A stretch of 64,000 nucleotides of DNA from Lophium mytilinum. Taxonomy: Eukaryota. The first letter of the stretch is position 1; each line of letters opens with the position of its first letter. The stretch lies in NCBI GenBank assembly GCA_010093605.1, contig MU004190.1, positions 434,001-498,000 of the forward strand, written 5' to 3'. The notes under the pieces are model-generated. The model was not told the origin of the DNA. It saw only the letters and a list, made by a program, of their open reading frames with translations, and ran no database searches. Shown one piece after another: positions 10,310 through 44,541 of the stretch. The translations under genes and the position numbers were made by a program.

Positions 10310-11080
10310 GTTTGAGGACCAGAGAGCTTGGGAGGCAAGTTGGTAGGTCACCCATTGTGGACATCGCCATAGTCCGCTTGTATATTACCCCAAAATACCT
10401 AACCTGTGCATACGTTGCACAGTAAGACAGTCTTAATTTCGCTTGCTTGTTCGCACATGATGAATTAGAAAGACTGCACGTCCTGCGACTCAAAATATGC
10501 ACTTCGTTTATCTAACAGGTTATGAAATGCCTATGATCAAGAGGCTATGCAAGTTGATAGACTGTGACTCCCGTACTAGCGATTGCGGAGATGTTTTCCT
10601 AATGTTTATAGTATAGCACGTGAATAGAAGACGTCGTAGTGGATGGAGGAAACTCGCAGGTGACATCCAATGAACTGCTTTAGCTCACACGTTACCTCTA
10701 GCTTCCGGTTGCATTTTGATGGGCACGTAATCTTTACGTGACTTATCCAAATTCGTCCACTATAGGGTATGAAAGCGCCAGTCTCCGCTTCTAGAGTTTT
10801 TAGTGCGTTCGTCGTGGGTTAAGATTGAAATACCATCTAGGCAGTTCTTTAATATAAAGAAAGCTGTAGTATATATAAAGAAGTTATTAAGAATAATAAA
10901 GGACTTAAAGTGGTGTTGCAAATTACGAGATTACGAATTGATCATCTTGAGCAGCGGCGAGGCGGGGAAGGTTCTCAAGTGAGATCGCAGTGACAGCGAT
11001 TAGATTACCTGTGATCGAGAGATTTTGTGGCCCGAGCACTTTTTAAGGTTATATATGTCATAAAGTTTCTTGCCTTCCTC

Positions 11081-11181
11081 AAATTACAGCGGCTTGCGAT
11101 GTGCTCTAGTGAAGCCAACTAAGAGGGGCTATCTCACCGGGGCCTCCTTCCCTTACCACCCCCGAGGTGGATGTAATTTTT
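11081..11181 (+). ncRNA. Putative Pol III-transcribed ~100-nt structured RNA, copy 1 (family unknown)
   Basis: 11070-11182 is 112/113 identical to 42440-42552. Ends AAATTACA/TGTAATTT are complementary, with three internal hairpins, a T5 run, TATATA at 11050 and a B-box GAGTTCGAATC downstream. Confidence 0.6.
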
Positions 11182-11188
11182 GCCCCCG

Positions 11189-11216
11189 AGCTTGAGTTCG
11201 AATCGCACATGTGCCA
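11189..11216 (+). promoter_or_regulatory. Downstream Pol III B-box / tRNA 3'-half-like remnant
   Basis: AGCTTGAGTTCGAATC (16 nt, identical in copy 2) contains the GTTCRANY B-box core and is followed by TGTGCCA. Confidence 0.6.
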
Positions 11217-12620
11217 ACTTTTCTTTTTTGTGACATCATTCTTTTTGTCTACATGCTCCAGCTCCGTTCTCTTTATCGTTTGCTAGGATTTGGTTTATCT
11301 CTCGGTAAATAGGCGTCGAAACCTGATCTTTGTTACGGCAGCGCATAGTTACGGCTAGAGGCACTTACAAGTATTGGCGAAAAATAGAGAGCAGTGCAAC
11401 AGGATACCTTCTAGCACCGTCCTGATATCCTTTTGGTACTTTGTCACGCATTAGGCCTTCCGACCGCTTTCCTCGGTACGCGTAGAAGTCAATTGTCTCC
11501 AACTTTCCCACCTTAATACTTCCCTAGTCTCCCAAAAATGCGCTATTGTGAACTGGAAAGTTTTCTGCTCTATGAATTATTGCAAGAATCTCTTACCTAT
11601 ATCTCGGTCCAGTACAAGATGTGCTAGTGCAAATTGGGGGAGTAAATCAATGACAAGTATCTAGAGGGTCTTTAGTAGTAGTACCGCCGTTATATTCCTA
11701 CTAAATTAAGCAAATGTGAACTTGAGTATTTAGGATATAACTATCCTTCCTGTCAATGGCTTACTTGTACTGCTTTAGATCGAGCTAGGCTAAAATAGAG
11801 TGAAGAGTGCTGTGTGGGGGACGTGAAAACGTTTCAGGGGGATGTGAATTGTGGCGAAGTCCCAGCATTCCAGCTCGAATCCATTGACTTGATGGAAAAT
11901 TGGCAGCTCTTACGTTACTACTACACATGTAAAGTGTGATGCTCCCAGAGCAGGCTCTATAACAACGACTTCGTAGATAAAGGGGCCCTTTTTTGAACTA
12001 AGTCCGAGAAGCGGAAACCTCGTAATTTTTCGCCTACTTAGCGTTGTTAGACTCTGAGCAAAACTTAAGGTACCTAGAAAAGCGTCTCATACGTGCCATT
12101 GTTTAGAAGAGCATGCTCGCCGGTGAACGCGAGCCCGATGGCAAAGTCGTCCATTCTGGCATCACGGCACAACATCGCGCAAGAGGAGGCTGAGGTTGCT
12201 CCACGCGTACGAATCGCCACAGCACCAAATGTCAGCAGTAGGTACAGTAGTCCGTCGCTCCATTGGCGTGACAAAGTAGTAACTAGTTGTGGTATCTGTT
12301 GGTGAAAGTACAATTACACACAGGGCCTCTGAACCTTATCCACCAGCGGCACTCGAGGATCTATTCTTCGCCTGTTAAAGGTTGCTAGATCTGAGAAAGC
12401 AGACTAGTGATGAGGTTGAATATTTTGCGATTCTTTGCGTAGAGGACGGTGTAGCTGCCGCGCAAGTCCGTCGTGGACAGCGAAACTCAGCCACACCCGC
12501 GTCATCCGAAATGGAACGAACTTCACCAGCCTTCTCCAGCTCACCCCTCCCCCATATTCTACCTAAACACCACCGCTCGCGGCCACCTGCATCCACACAG
12601 CCGCTTTCACAACCTCCACC

Positions 12621-14084: not shown

Positions 14085-15630
14085 TCACCGAGCTCCTACT
14101 GTCTCTACTCTATTGATACCTATCGATCATATATCTCTACAAACTAATTGGATACACACGGCCCCCGACGGCAAGTTTTGAAGAGCGAAGCGCGTTTTAA
14201 ACGTCTCAAATTGGGCATAGCAAGGCGTTTCGGGGGGAAATATACTCCCTTTTCATGTGTCACGTGCAGCTTTGCCCATGGATGTGAGATTTTCGAGTAC
14301 CCCTTAGTAGATACGGCTGGTATAGTGACTGTTATATATGGAATATATACCAAATTCTTGAAAAAGGTGGTACTCCAATCTGCGTTCTGTACATCTGCTT
14401 GTCGCTGCTTGGGGTGCTTCAATGCATTTTTAAAGCTATGGAGTCTTAGCTTTCGGCTATCTGGAAACTAGTTGAAGCACTCCAAGAAGTGGCAGACAAG
14501 TGCAGCAAATGAGTAGCAGTAGGAAATGACAGCCCACAAATCTATAAGGTATACCCACTATTTCTATGCTTGTGTACGCTTGTTTAGCACCGTCGGGGGT
14601 CCTCCAGTGTGCTATTGCTAATCAAGAAACAGCAGCTTTGACGAGCCTGATAGCTCGCCGGGCCACCTCAGACGGTGCCAAACTGTTGTGAGTGTGCCAC
14701 TTCTTAGGTCACGTGCAATGCTTAGGTAAGTTAGATTCTGAGGAGGTATAAATTCTGGGCCTCGACTCTCAGCAATTACCTTTTTTCAAGCTGTGGGCGT
14801 CGTGGAAATGCAAAAAGGGCAACCGCCAATATCAATGGGGTGGGAGCGGAGGATCAATCCCAACTGTAGAAGGCAGCAATGGAGTTGGTAGTGGAGAAGT
14901 CGGCCTGGCTTCCCCACACGGCATAAGTTGGTGATGACTACCGTAAAGGTCTCACGATGCTAAGTTGTTTCTATAACCAGTTTGCTTCTTCACATCGACC
15001 TCGGGAACCCAGCATTCTGATTCGATTATGAGGAGCATCATAAGCTATGATGGTTCCGCGATTCTTTTTTAAAATATTGACGATCACCATCGTCACTTCT
15101 CTGATGCCATCCCTACACTCCAGAAGTGGATGATGCTGGAAGTTTTACAACGCTAATCTACCTCCTCCATTATCTATCGCGTCCCAATTTTGATCTACTG
15201 CAGCTCCCTCTCCACATAGGTTGTAGAGTTGTCTATTGTTGATCTCCGACCACGACTTTTAATTCTGGCGACTCCTGAAAGCCGAGAACGACGCATTTAT
15301 ACCTACCAGCGGGCGAGATGAGAGAAGTCAGGTCATTGTCACGCGCTCATCACTTTCGCACGTGGATGCCGAGCCCGATCAAGGGAAGAAAGAAGAAGCT
15401 GGAGGACATGTGTGTTATAGCGGTCAGGTGGATGTCACCTGCGAGTACCTCCTTCGACTACGGCGTCCTCTCTTACACATGAAGACCCTAATACACGTGC
15501 CCCTCACGTCCGCCCATTCTCGCCTGGCTATAAAACCCCGCCCGCCTGCAGCTTCCTGGACTTTCAACGAAGAAGTCAAGAAGAAGCTGGAAGGGAGGAG
15601 ATCAACATCAGAATCGACACCGATATATGG

Positions 15631-15748
15631 AGTGAATGTATTTCCTGGGGATCAAAAAGGAGGACTGACACCACTGCATGAAGTGGATGCCTTTCCTGGG
15701 GATTGAAAACGGGACTGACACCGCTGCACAAAGTGGATGCCTCTTCCT
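15631..15748. repeat. Degenerate tandem repeat, ~50-51 bp unit, ~2.3 copies
   Basis: AGTGRATGYMTTTCCTGGGGAT...GGACTGACACCRCTGCA recurs at 15631, 15682 and (partial) 15732. Confidence 0.85.
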
Positions 15749-28461: not shown

Positions 28462-28577
28462 CCCAGGGGTGCTTCGAGGGGGTTTTTGGGGCGGGCAAAA
28501 GCGTTGCTTTCTTGGTCTGATATTTGGAGTTTGGAGTTTGGGATGCCTAGGAGGATTGATACCCATATACTGGCCAG

Positions 28578-28913
28578 ATTGGCCCTACTTAGCGAATGAA
28601 CTGCGACCCTATACACCTTCAAAAGTGCCCCTGGAGTAACTGAAATCGTGAAACTGTGATGTCATGTTCTAGAGACTGTGAATTGGACCTTGTTCGATAG
28701 CGTGCCATTTAAGCCTTGAATTTCTTATGGTTGCGATATTGGCCATGTTTACCTTGTAAATTGCGACCCTATACGCCCTCAAAAGCGCCCCTGGACTAAC
28801 TGAAATTCTGAGGCTGTGATGTCATGTTCTAGACACCATGAATTGGACCTTGTTCGATATCGTGCTAATCGAGTGTCGGATTTCTTACAGCTGCGATATT
28901 GGCCCTACTTAGC
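28578..28913. repeat. Tandem repeat, 160-bp unit, ~2.1 copies
   Basis: TGCGACCCTATAC..CAAAAG.GCCCCTGGA.TAACTGAAAT...GATGTCATGTTCTAGA...GAATTGGACCTTGTTCGATA starts at 28602 and 28762. ATTGGCCCTACTTAGC occurs at 28578 and 28898. Confidence 0.92.
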
Positions 28914-34335: not shown

Positions 34336-34427
34336 TGGTCTAAATCACGGGGTATAGAATGTGACATCTCGGGTTTCACGATTTCAATTAGTCCAGGGGC
34401 GCTTTTGAGGGTGTAAAGGGTCGCAAT
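34336..34427 (-). repeat. Inverted partial copy of the 160-bp repeat at 28.6-28.9 kb
   Basis: Reverse complement reads AATTGCGACCCTTTACACCCTCAAAAGCGCCCCTGGACTAATTGAAATCGTGAAAC...GATGTCACATTCTA, matching ~28759-28850. Confidence 0.9.
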
Positions 34428-35272
34428 TGGGAAGCTGGAGCAGTGATATATCTGTGCACACAAGATCATGATCTAGTACTGTAGCCTATATTCTAGGTGT
34501 TAGACTAGAGTGCACACCCGTTTGCCGCCGTCTGAGGTGGCTCAGCTAGATAATTGGCTGTAGAAAAAGATAAGCTCCCGGTCATTGAAAGGACATTCAG
34601 GTCCCTCAAACAGTGGTAGGGGAACCTACAAAATGCACGCCTGGGAATTATCGTTGCAGAATGCCTCCATCAGCAGAGAAAGCAGCGCTATCATAACACA
34701 GCATCATTACACAACATACACAAGCTTCACACTCACATTCAAAGGCAAGAAAAATCTCAAGCAAAACCCGTATTGGATTGCGCCTCTCTAACTCGCTGCA
34801 TAGACTCCACTCCATGAATCCCTCCTAACTACAGCACACGACGCTCAGCACAGACCGGGGGGTATAGAAAGGCCTGATCCGTCTCCAACGCTCGCTTGCT
34901 AAAGAGCATGGCCGCTGCAAAGTATGACCCAAAATAACAAGAAAAGGGAAAGGTATGGTGAACATGGGGTTTGGTGGGGGATTGGTATGTGTGGAAATCT
35001 GAAAATCGCTCCTTGGTGGATGCTAGACTTTATAGCTGATCTGGGGAGTCGTGCAAATGTGCCATTGTTGCCGAGGACCCTGGAAATTGTTGCGGGATGA
35101 CTGACGTGGGGAAGGGGAAGGTGTGTTGCAGAACGCAGGGGAAGTTCTAGCTCGCAGATTGGGGAATTAGAGTCGCGGCGAGAGATGCCCATGAATCGGA
35201 GATGTGCTCGAAGGCGTCGCGTGATCCGTTCATATTGACAGCACGCGTAGCGTTGACAAGCAAGTTGTGTTC

Positions 35273-41366: not shown

Positions 41367-42450
41367 TGATCGATCGCGACGCTTGAACGCTACTTTTCAT
41401 GATATCAGGACGTTACGTACTATCTTCGGGGTGATGGAGTATGGGTTAGCAGCTATGGGGTTATTGGAGTACATTGTTACGGAATTTGATACCCATACAA
41501 TTTGTTTGAGGCTTCAGCTTGTAGTAAACTGGTAGTTCATTGGTGACTACAGGGAATCGGTACCTATTTCTGATATACCTGATCTAGACATCATGGATTA
41601 GACTCTCTATACACCTCCTCAAGCATGACCTAGCGACAAGATCACATCGTGTTCGACTGGGCGCCTAACATTACCACTTTAAAACGGCTCCCCGAGCACA
41701 TGTGTAACAACATCGATCATCGAATGTACCGGAGTGGACATGCCAGCCCAGCCGTACTAAGTAAGACTCTTGATTTACGGTGCGCAGTGCAGTACATCCC
41801 TGAATTCAGAACTCCTACTCTCAGATGGGCCTTTGCTGCCCTATCAACTATTCCCAAGCGCGTAAACACCGAGTGTGATTCTAAAGGTGTAGACGGCGCG
41901 GGTTACGGTCTTTAAACTTGTACATTTTAGCATCGCAAGTTCGTATCCTCTAGTGCGATGTTGAGGTTATGTCGACTGTCGCAGAATGGCGAAGCATCTA
42001 GTCTAATCTCTAAACTGTGATAATGGAGATTGGCGGCCTGGTTCTCTGTGTGTAGGTAGAAGGCGGCATCGTGCGATTACGGTCAAGGGTTGGAGGCATA
42101 TCACGTGATCTATGATGTGCAGGACAATGTATCTTGAAGTCATTTCCTTCAATGCTCCCATAAGCCTTTAATGATGTGACAGTCGCTCCAGAGTCATTAA
42201 GCACCTAGCACGTGTGGTGAAACATCCTATTACTGGCGATGGAGGTGGCTTGCCCGATCGCGGTAATTTGCGCGGGTGGTGAAGCTGAAAGAATAAACAC
42301 GTGAGACGATGGACACGTTGCGGAAATGCGAGGGAGAGCACCTTGCTGGACTGCGTGCGCTGTGCGGGTGGTGACGTTGGTGTAACTAAACTTAAGTGGG
42401 GCTGATCGTGTGCCATGTGTATATTTCTCAATATATTCTTTGCCTTCCTC

Positions 42451-42551
42451 AAATTACAGCGGCTTGCGATGTGCTCTAGTGAAGCCAACTAAGAAGGGCT
42501 ATCTCACCGGGGCCTCCTTCCCTTACCACCCCCGAGGTGGATGTAATTTTT
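42451..42551 (+). ncRNA. Putative Pol III-transcribed ~100-nt structured RNA, copy 2 (family unknown)
   Basis: One substitution (42495 A vs 11125 G) relative to copy 1. TATATT at 42420 (-31), T5 then T7 runs, B-box at 42565-42580. Confidence 0.6.
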
Positions 42552-42564
42552 GTCTTTTTTTGCT

Positions 42565-42592
42565 AGCTTGAGTTCGAATCTCGCGTGTGCCA
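42565..42592 (+). promoter_or_regulatory. Downstream Pol III B-box / tRNA T-arm plus acceptor-strand-like remnant
   Basis: AGCTTGAG-TTCGAAT-CTCGC-GTGTGCC-A has the spacing of a tRNA T-arm plus 3' acceptor strand; no matching 5' tRNA half found. Confidence 0.6.
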
Positions 42593-43383
42593 CCTTGCTT
42601 TTTTCTTTTGTTTGAACGGTTTATCCTTTTTGCCCGCCGGCTATGTCGTAATCCTCTGTTGCTAGCAGACTTTCTTTTGTTTTCCATCTCTTGATACGTA
42701 GGCGTTCCTTGTAGACTTCTTAAAGGACCAGTATATAATAGCTAGGATTGGAGGAAAAAGGAGAGTCTCGGGACTTACAGCTAGATGCGATGCATTCCAG
42801 GCACACGAAGAAAGCACGTTACACTTTCTATTTTACTAAAATTGCTCTGGATGAGTAAGGTTCTCGACAGATGTAGTGTTCTCAAGGGATTGAAAATCCT
42901 GCCCGACGGTCATAAGGAGATAAACTTGGGCGGCTTGCAACAGCTTTTGTTTTGTCGAGGGCTTTTAGGACTGAAGTATGCTTCTAGCATAAAAAATGCT
43001 CACCTCTATATCCTCCACTGTAGAGATAACCTACCTACCTAGATAGCTGAAGAGAGTGAAGGAGTTGGGATAGAGTTAGGCCAAGGCCTCGCTTCGGTAT
43101 CCTGGTGGAGAGGTGACGTCTCAGCTTACGAGGCCCACATCATTCCACCATTCAGCTGGACTAGGTAGCCTTTCCATCCTCTAACCACCTGCGCAATCGG
43201 TACTACTTTACGAGGAATACGATAGACTTCCTAAGGCCGGCGTCAGGCATCAGCGACGGATCTTGATGCTTGAAAAGGCTTGATATCTGCTAATTCCTAA
43301 CTCTTACTTTCTACGAAACCACCACAGCAGCCGCACAGAATTCCTACTTGCACCGATTTTCATATAACATCCTTTCATCAATC

Positions 43384-44541
43384 ATGTCTGAAGGCTCCAG
43401 CATCCCTAACGCCAAGTACTCCACCATCACCAATCACACCGTAACCCCGCCAGGATGGTCATCGCACCCGCGAATCGACAGATCAACCCTCACAAACTGC
43501 ACCCTCGCCGGTCTCTCTGAGAAGACCGTATTCGACCGCTCTCGCCTCACAGACACCACAGTCACCTCGGCAGCTTCCGCAGGCCCCCCGTCATCCGTAT
43601 CAATCGCACGAAATGGTAAATCGCACTTCGACCGCAGCGTCCTCGAGCGCGCCCACGTGACAGACTCGTATCTCAACCGCTCCACCATCAAAGACAGCAC
43701 GATGAACCTCGCGCACGCGGACCGAAGCACCGTCTCTGGCACTCAGTGTGTCATTAGCAGTAGTCGGCTGGACCGGTCTACGGTGTCCGATAGCTTTATC
43801 AGCGGCGACAGCGTCGCTGAACGCAGCGATGTTAAAGAGGGCTCCGAGGTTAGCGGGAAGAGCAACCTCTCACGGTCAAGGGTGACCGCTTCGCGAGTTA
43901 GAGACGCGACGAGGCTGGATCGGAGCACTCTCAAGAACTGTAGTGTTGAAAACAGTCGCGCGGAGAGAAGCACTTTGGAGGATTGCGAGGTTGTGAATTG
44001 TAAGCTTGAGCGGACGAAATTCACGGGAATGCGGTTGGCGAATGGGCGGTGGGAAAGGGGGAATCTAGTAGGGAGGATAGGGGAGGGAGAGGTGATCTGT
44101 GAGAAGATCGAGCAGGCGAAGGTTGACGAGAAGGGAGAGCGTGCGGAGACGGCGAGGGTACAGGAGCCATTGAGGCCGCTAGATGCTGCAGAAGTAATTG
44201 CTCTACGGGATGGGTTCCTGCCCGATGAGAAAAAACTGGTAGGTTGTTTTTCTTTGCACTATAATGCCATTTGCGGCGGCCACTTCGAGGGACATTTCTC
44301 TAACACCTGCCAGCAACCTGACGCCCCTGACTCACTTCGTATAAACATCGAGCATTCTTCCGACATTTCTAGAGATCCAGATGCTAAGTACGAACACGTC
44401 ATGAGCCCAATTTCTGAGGCTGGCACAGCAAGCTCAGGGGTGGGCTGGTCGACGGGTCTTCCGGACGAAGAAACAGCGCTTGAGCTTGAGACCTACGACG
44501 GGCCAAGGACGTACACGCCTCCTCCGCCCTATGATGGCTGA
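43384..44541 (+). CDS. Pentapeptide-repeat beta-solenoid protein with C-terminal PPxY motif
   Basis: ATG 43384; about 12 repeats of hydrophobic-[D/E/N/S]-R-[S/T/G], mostly spaced 15-17 aa apart. Likely in-frame intron 44239-44313; ends YTPPPPYDG*. Confidence 0.85.
   Translation: MSEGSSIPNAKYSTITNHTVTPPGWSSHPRIDRSTLTNCTLAGLSEKTVFDRSRLTDTTVTSAASAGPPSSVSIARNGKSHFDRSVLERAHVTDSYLNRSTIKDSTMNLAHADRSTVSGTQCVISSSRLDRSTVSDSFISGDSVAERSDVKEGSEVSGKSNLSRSRVTASRVRDATRLDRSTLKNCSVENSRAERSTLEDCEVVNCKLERTKFTGMRLANGRWERGNLVGRIGEGEVICEKIEQAKVDEKGERAETARVQEPLRPLDAAEVIALRDGFLPDEKKLVGCFSLHYNAICGGHFEGHFSNTCQQPDAPDSLRINIEHSSDISRDPDAKYEHVMSPISEAGTASSGVGWSTGLPDEETALELETYDGPRTYTPPPPYDG

Follow-up and report, generated by a model that had tools for sequence, protein, structure and literature searches.

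Two near-identical intergenic loci in an ascomycete fungus point to a small family of putative Pol III genes with a U6-like layout

The analysed window, a stretch of 64 kb, belongs to an ascomycete fungus, and its long open reading frames (ORFs) feature HBS1, ATG13, Ysc84/SH3 and TFIIS-SPOC domains, with ascomycete clusters as the closest ones to its ATG13 feature. Two intergenic loci within this window carry an almost identical core in the same orientation, at positions 11070-11182 (copy 1) and 42440-42552 (copy 2). Searches with blastn and nhmmer and a count of the individual positions agree that 112 of the 113 nt are identical, exactly as an earlier note on this DNA had claimed, and the sole difference is a G in copy 1 and an A in copy 2 at 11125. 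No third copy is detected by either program within the 64 kb, which holds just these two. A coding reading via short ORFs was rejected, none being credible at either copy: no ATG-started ORF of at least 40 aa runs across the copy 1 core, and the 54-aa minus-strand ORF at 42523-42687, which clips the end of copy 2, appears fortuitous. Directly downstream of copy 2, a 385-aa ORF (43384-44541, plus strand) displays a sub-threshold match to Pentapeptide_4 (E = 2e-8, 34.6 bits vs a cut-off of 38); a pentapeptide-repeat domain would be unusual for a fungal protein. Elsewhere in the window, a 160-nt unit is tandemly duplicated at 28566-28885 with 79% identity, and its first ~55 nt recur in inverted orientation ~5.6 kb away (34373-34428) with 89-91% complementarity; these sequences look like repeat or transposon pieces. 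In addition, a ~50-nt unit occurs three times in tandem, with 77-90% identity, in intergenic DNA of lower GC content at 15616-15742.

The similarity between the two loci reaches beyond the core in a discontinuous manner. The repeat search aligns 11050-11182 with 42420-42552 at 93% identity and, as a second block, 11189-11228 with 42565-42604 at 83% identity. Core identity breaks directly 3' of TTTTTG and is followed by a linker that is twice as long in copy 2 (12 nt) as in copy 1 (6 nt), with 2/6 positions identical, after which an island at 11189-11204 is identical at all 16 positions and gives way to a stretch with 17/24 identical positions. This course, described previously as an interruption after TTTTTG and a resumption in a 16-nt block with a B box, was fully reproduced. 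Strong divergence of the flanks had been noted as well and is evident from 26/59 identical positions upstream and 47/102 and 38/69 downstream (44-55%). Small islands apart, the faint downstream similarity that was reported alongside is near the level that an optimised alignment yields for unrelated DNA (46%). Amid the otherwise unalignable flanks, ~115-155 nt downstream of the cores, the stretches 11299-11318 and 42686-42705 (ATCTCTYGRTA..TAGGCGT) share 16/20 positions by hand count from the alignment, which may represent chance or another conserved element. The earlier conclusion that the core is under selection is only partly supported, and gene conversion between paralogs could account for its near-identity as well as constraint or function.

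Further copies of the element were recognised by comparing contigs of three public sequencing runs (X1, X2 and X3) over 10600-11700. Besides the arrangement of the window itself, these contigs display three left junctions at 11067, 11070 (the position of copy 2) and 11074, and the upstream letters at the four left junctions are mutually different. Four distinct 5' junctions with unlike upstream letters indicate that the genome contains at least four copies. The two additional copies are diverged: one has 7 other letters over 11067-11139, and the other has 5 over 11074-11121, followed by a changed middle that can be re-aligned. In the DNA runs X1 and X2, each displayed contig over 11120-11139 (five contig pieces left out) has exactly one other letter, which would also fit an A at 11125 in copy 1. 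Tentatively, both cores may therefore be fully identical in that strain, in which case the G of the window could reflect variation between strains, or gene conversion could have homogenised the cores.

A TATA box is found at a fixed distance from the core in all four copies. The heptamer TATATAT starts at 11050 in copy 1 (11050-11056, plus strand) and TATATTT starts at 42420 in copy 2 (42420-42426, plus strand), each exactly 31 nt before AAATTACA, the predicted start of the RNA at 11081 and 42451, respectively. This spacing had been claimed for both copies and extends to the two further ones, where counting back by hand from the junctions in 30-letter loose ends of contigs places a heptamer of the same class at the equivalent of 11051 in the third copy (TATATAT) and of 11050 in the fourth copy (TATATAA). 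The spacers between TATA box and core are otherwise dissimilar among the four copies. The class TATAT(A/T)(A/T) occurs at 17 of the 64,000 positions of the window and, provided that the flanks are independent, the chance that three further flanks share the offset within 1 nt is ~5e-10. The maintenance of the TATA box at one offset in four unrelated flanks implies selection on expression at each locus, and this shared box may be viewed as the strongest sign that each copy is a promoter-driven gene of its own and not a passive repeat. Directly upstream of the predicted start lies a pyrimidine-rich proximal segment, TTGCCTTCCTC (11070-11080, plus strand), with the start context C|AAA, which is identical in copies 1 and 2; homology to the other copies begins at 11067, 11070 and 11074.

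The TATA-box spacing and the position of a T run delimit a predicted RNA of ~101 nt, which would extend from AAATTACA to the end of T5 in copy 1 (11081-11181, plus strand) and over 42451-42551 (plus strand) in copy 2, where T5 occupies 42547-42551. The T5 run of copy 1 (11177-11181, plus strand, +97 to +101) is the proposed Pol III terminator. In both copies T5 comes directly after the terminal stem of the predicted RNA, and more T runs follow within 50 nt, namely T4CT6 at 11219-11229 in copy 1 and, 3 nt past T5-G of copy 2, a T7 run (42555-42561, plus strand) that would provide a strong back-up terminator. Against this assignment, a run of just five T is by itself a weak stop signal in some yeasts. 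The dissimilarity of the linker after T5-G, in both length and sequence, is what one would anticipate for an RNA with its end at the T run. Within the predicted RNA, the block TGCTCTAGTGA at +22 to +32 (11102-11112, plus strand) resembles the A-box consensus TRGCNNAGTGG, and this match, read from the sequence, is weak because it needs one inserted base and a final G>A change.

Past the T runs, a B box with the sequence GAGTTCGAATC is located at 11194-11204 in copy 1 and 42570-42580 in copy 2, for which the consensus is GGTTCGANTCC. It begins at +114 and +120, respectively, and thus 12-18 nt past the terminator. Its tRNA B-box 9-mer, GTTCGAATC, occurs at just two sites in the 64 kb (11196-11204 and 42572-42580), both within the island of 16 identical positions; shuffled sequences are expected to contain 0.57 such sites, and 12 of 100 shuffles reach two. 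With the T7 run in place, a Pol III transcript of copy 2 is very unlikely to reach the B box, which would consequently be extragenic. The earlier assignment of the downstream block as a B box is upheld by the exact 9-mer and is too narrow in extent, as the block continues into a likeness to the last third of a tRNA gene. In copy 1 (11189-11228, plus strand), repeat, motif and alignment comparisons reveal GAGTTCGAATC as B box and T loop, an acceptor-like ...TGTGCC-A and the T4CT6 run. In copy 2 (42565-42604, plus strand), the B box is followed by T6 at 42599-42604, and ARAGORN, when run at a lowered threshold, uses this block as T arm and acceptor strand. The block can thus be read as a T arm, whose T loop is TTCGAAT, followed by 7 nt of 3' acceptor strand, the discriminator A and, spaced as is usual for tRNA genes, a T-run terminator. 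Moreover, the sequence GGCTTGC at 11091-11097, ~10 nt past the predicted start, is placed where the mature 5' end of a tRNA would fall, and hand analysis allows it to pair with the acceptor-like strand, 6 of 7 positions matching in copy 2 and 5 of 7 in copy 1. Given the positional freedom, the chance of such pairing is ~1 in 10, and it is only suggestive as a sign of tRNA origin. Overall, the extragenic B box looks as if it belonged to what is left of a tRNA gene, namely its T arm, acceptor strand and terminator, and the resemblance of the downstream block to a tRNA 3' end is the reason why a descent of the family from a tRNA gene, which the earlier note had left out of account, is proposed. 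A long-range helix between 11091-11104 and the acceptor-like 11205-11215, which appears in a fold of copy 1 and is compatible with two A>G changes in copy 2, was rejected as a part of the RNA because T5 and T7 separate its strands in copy 2.

Secondary structure prediction for 11081-11182 yields an MFE of -27.3 kcal/mol, and an 8-bp terminal stem and a CCACC/GGUGG hairpin are present in both copies. In the terminal stem, the 5' arm AAAUUACA (11081-11088, plus strand) pairs with the 3' arm UGUAAUUU (11172-11179, plus strand) in the MFE and the centroid structure, with pair probabilities of 0.55-1.0; by our own arithmetic, a perfect 8-bp helix joining the predicted RNA ends has a chance of ~1.5e-5 per register. 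The hairpin CCACC-CCCGA-GGUGG (hairpin 3; 11156-11170, plus strand) is formed with pair probabilities of 0.96-0.98 in both copies, and these two predicted elements are robust. They are also what remains of the four-way junction of three hairpins that the earlier note had put forward. By folding energy, the junction as a whole is not favoured: at -22.8 (copy 1) and -23.1 kcal/mol (copy 2) it exceeds the MFE by 4.5 and 4.0 kcal/mol, and the pair probabilities for its hairpins 1 and 2 amount to 0.00-0.42. As a particular secondary structure, it is only partly supported. For the middle of the predicted RNA, competing folds are obtained. The folding energy is no better than that of dinucleotide shuffles, neither for 11081-11182 (z = 0.14) nor for longer stretches (z = 0.71, -0.06 and 0.86).

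The copies themselves provide some information on hairpin 2 (GAGGG.GCU / GGC..CCUUC; 11123-11150, plus strand). The single difference between copies 1 and 2 is located in this hairpin and exchanges G-U for A-U. In the fourth copy, a hand alignment of 30 contig letters indicates a double compensatory change of the pair 11123-11150 from G-C to C-G and compatible changes from G-U to A-U at 11125-11148 and from U-G to U-A at 11130-11141, along with one change with an inserted base that breaks 11126-11147 and one more change in the loop. This variation speaks slightly for the outer part of hairpin 2, and the evidence is thin because the diverged copies may be pseudogenes. In the third copy, G>A at 11109 with an unchanged partner contradicts the competing MFE helix.

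Comparison with known RNA families agrees with the earlier description of the RNA as an unrecognised one. Against the 4,227 families of Rfam, no match at the gathering score is obtained across the 64-kb window, and the RNA alone (11066-11190) has no match at E<=10. For the extended region 10950-11350, the sole match up to E = 10 is Vault (15.2 bits vs a gathering score of 34, E = 1.6), which leans on the downstream B box. ARAGORN predicts 0 tRNA genes in the window and none with introns allowed or with -ps; at ps70-80, cloverleaves appear that differ between the copies. Several candidate classes were rejected on these and related grounds. For a tRNA gene, the cloverleaf is lacking, and the B box, instead of residing inside the transcript, comes after T5 (copy 1) or after both T5 and T7 (copy 2); a tRNA with a long intron is rejected by ARAGORN with introns allowed. 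The U6 snRNA carries the motifs AGC and ACAGAGA, the latter of which is absent from the core, where ACAGCGG is found, and no U6 match is present in Rfam at E<=10. For an Sm-class snRNA, the Sm-like AAUUUUUG is largely paired, the sequence 3' of the U run is unconserved and an Rfam snRNA match is lacking. Vault scores below the Rfam gathering threshold and Y RNA has no Rfam match, with nothing on the RNA alone. A SINE or MITE is opposed by the low number of ~4 copies, the lack of a target-site duplication and of an A tail, and homology whose limit is 7-14 nt away from the inverted repeat AAATTACA/TGTAATTT, on its outer side; since homology runs beyond this 8-bp inverted repeat, its reading as a MITE was dismissed.

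Searches for relatives, confined to metagenomes and bacterial and archaeal genomes, yielded none. A 23-mer conserved between two paralogs has 0 matches in the metagenome scan, a 20-mer has 2 chance matches with no similarity past the pattern, and the scan of bacterial and archaeal genomes yields 1 chance match, in a GC-rich coding region of a MAG. In open-access full text, neither an 18-nt literal string of the core nor a description of such an RNA was found.

Possible signs of transcription in the region come from the contigs of the three runs, which show neither ends nor strand and whose depths give neither expression nor copy number. Contigs of X3 skip 46 nt at 11323-11368, where X1 and X2 (DNA) are continuous. 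No run is recorded as RNA, and X3 probably is, because this spliced 46-nt intron is seen in X3 alone. On the minus strand, the skipped segment reads GTAAGT...CAG with a TAAC branch-like site, and the corresponding spliced minus-strand transcript, with no long ORF nearby, adjoins the downstream flank of copy 1. X3 contigs also connect the core with the downstream flank at copy 1, and the upstream flank with the core at copy 2. Longer transcripts thus overlap both loci, so that presence in X3 says nothing about a discrete small RNA. Directly upstream of copy 1, 10896-11043 is covered by X1 and X2 and has no cover in X3, which is no evidence for a start site.

Taken together, these features are best explained, with somewhat better than even confidence, by a family of few Pol III genes that encode an RNA of ~100 nt. 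In each of them, the TATA box would lie at -31, a weak A-box-like block would follow at +22 and T5 would act as terminator, with the B box a short distance past it within a tRNA-like relic. At the level of sequence, the U6-like Pol III layout that had been proposed earlier is well supported by the TATA box at -31, T5 at the terminal stem and the conserved extragenic B box, and the assignment as a new small-RNA gene family using a known but rare promoter design is credible. For transcription of these genes, TFIIIC would bind the B box GAGTTCGAATC and perhaps also the weak A-box-like block at +22, and TFIIIB/TBP would sit at the TATA box (-31). Initiation by Pol III would fall on the A of C|AAATTACA (11081 / 42451), and the enzyme would stop in T5 or, failing that, in T4CT6 or T7. 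The transcript would bear a 5'-triphosphate, and its initial 8 nt would be paired to those 8 that end within the U tail, resulting in a closed, La-type 3'-oligo(U) RNA with a stable CCACC/GGUGG hairpin and a pyrimidine-rich stretch. Concerning the origin of the family, a tRNA gene was probably remodelled and gained an internal terminator, which would have stranded its B box downstream and generated a split promoter like that of yeast SNR6.

Several known systems share parts of this design. In yeast U6, the B box is located beyond the terminator according to an excerpt of PMC1796607, and the SNR6 gene of S. cerevisiae, as characterised in excerpts of two reports, resembles the loci described here in its TATA box at ~-30, T-run terminator and downstream B box, and its intragenic A-box-like block at ~+21 would have a weak counterpart in the block at +22 (PMC1796607, PMC9136082). 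In contrast to SNR6, the RNA is not U6, the B box follows the terminator by 12-18 nt instead of about 120 nt, and it resides within a relic that resembles a tRNA 3' end. Rodent 4.5SH and 4.5SI genes possess A and B boxes and a required TATA-like box at -31/-24, as stated in an excerpt of PMC10137851. These genes and those of the BC1 type, which encode lineage-specific Pol III RNAs derived from tRNA or 7SL genes, likewise form small multicopy families with products of ~100 nt, A- and B-box elements and a TATA-like box (the same excerpt, PMC10137851), and an origin from a tRNA gene is plausible here too. Unlike the present family, they keep both boxes inside the transcript, whereas the B box is extragenic here; there is also no sequence relationship, and the lineage is fungal. 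In Neurospora, Pol III loci for milRNAs (milR) contain TATA-like elements, putative A and B boxes and poly-T, one of them being linked to a tRNA, as outlined in an excerpt of PMC3547838. They are thereby alike in being non-classical Pol III units of a filamentous ascomycete with these elements (PMC3547838, same excerpt), and they differ in that no long Dicer-type hairpin is evident here, the comparison being one with the description of the milR loci and not with their sequence. Y and vault RNAs, finally, correspond to the predicted RNA in their size of ~100 nt, 5'-3' terminal stem, U tail and pyrimidine-rich internal stretch, but no Rfam Y_RNA match is found and Vault stays at 15.2 bits vs 34.

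Among the alternative explanations, a decaying tRNA-derived repeat, either a pseudo-tRNA or a SINE-like element that may retain pieces of a Pol III promoter and whose RNA has no function of its own, is unlikely. It would account for the resemblance of the downstream block to a T arm, acceptor strand and terminator, for the pairing of GGCTTGC (~+11) with the acceptor-like strand at 6/7 or 5/7 positions and for the presence of several genomic copies, two of them diverged. Nevertheless, only ~4 copies are seen, an A-rich tail and a target-site duplication are absent, and homology starts ~10 nt before the predicted start and not at the end of an element; ARAGORN reports no cloverleaf even with introns allowed, and its lowered-threshold solutions differ between the copies. 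A TATA box at one exact offset in four unrelated flanks is likewise difficult to reconcile with decay. The same box could instead belong to a Pol II snRNA-type promoter, with AAUUUUUG as an Sm site followed by a 3' stem-loop, which we regard as quite improbable. The Sm consensus is R-A-U4-6-G-R, which AAUUUUUG fits, a precise TATA box near -30 is typical of fungal snRNA genes and agrees with the position observed, and CGAGC/GUUCG can form a small hairpin after the Sm-like site in copy 1. That hairpin is weakened in copy 2 (hand analysis), however, the Sm-like site is mostly buried in the predicted terminal stem, and the sequence after the U run is conserved neither in length nor in letters, with the exact tRNA B-box 9-mer as the next conserved island; no snRNA family is matched at E<=10.

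The remaining two readings concern what the loci might produce or do. A Pol III-transcribed precursor of microRNA-like small RNAs would have precedents in Neurospora milR-1 to -4, which are Pol III-dependent and have similar promoter elements as described in an excerpt of PMC3547838, and the MFE fold does contain an irregular hairpin of ~19 pairs at 11096-11147. The longest uninterrupted helix is 8 bp, though, the long hairpin competes with other folds, and it is contradicted by a diverged copy in which 11109 is altered from G to A and the partner is unchanged; this precursor is considered very improbable. The loci might also act at the DNA level without a stable RNA, be it as an extra-TFIIIC site, a chromatin boundary or a promoter piece of neighbouring Pol II genes. 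A conserved B box and two intergenic loci that are overlapped by longer transcripts in X3 contigs are compatible with such a role, but an invariant 113-nt core, a TATA box positioned at -31 and an 8-bp stem that joins both ends and precedes a T run are all dispensable for a boundary, and this possibility is given hardly any credence.

If the Pol III gene family is accepted as the preferred reading, a function as a stable RNP scaffold or regulatory RNA, and neither as a guide nor as a Dicer substrate, can be offered as a guess. A more far-reaching and rather doubtful proposal is that the loci encode a Pol III RNA of filamentous ascomycetes that is stably expressed and has escaped description so far, a counterpart of the Y, vault and 4.5S-type RNP RNAs that would have been born by an internal terminator in a tRNA gene. 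Should the RNA be unstable or species-restricted, the finding would shrink to a tRNA-derived curiosity. On the practical side, the loci may be of use as short, clearly bounded cassettes with a Pol III promoter and terminator, e.g. for guide-RNA expression in that fungus. To our knowledge, the set of fungal Pol III transcripts is regarded as small and as essentially complete, comprising tRNAs, 5S, U6, SRP and RNase P RNAs and few others, and the layout of TATA box, A box and downstream B box is known in fungi for U6 only. With a second, unrelated RNA family that uses the U6 layout, a major fungal group would gain a further Pol III product and, if the reading is true, there would be a natural example of an extragenic B box arising from a tRNA gene. 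The gain of a terminator in a tRNA gene would then represent an evolutionary route to the odd SNR6-type split promoter, taken in a second, unrelated family.
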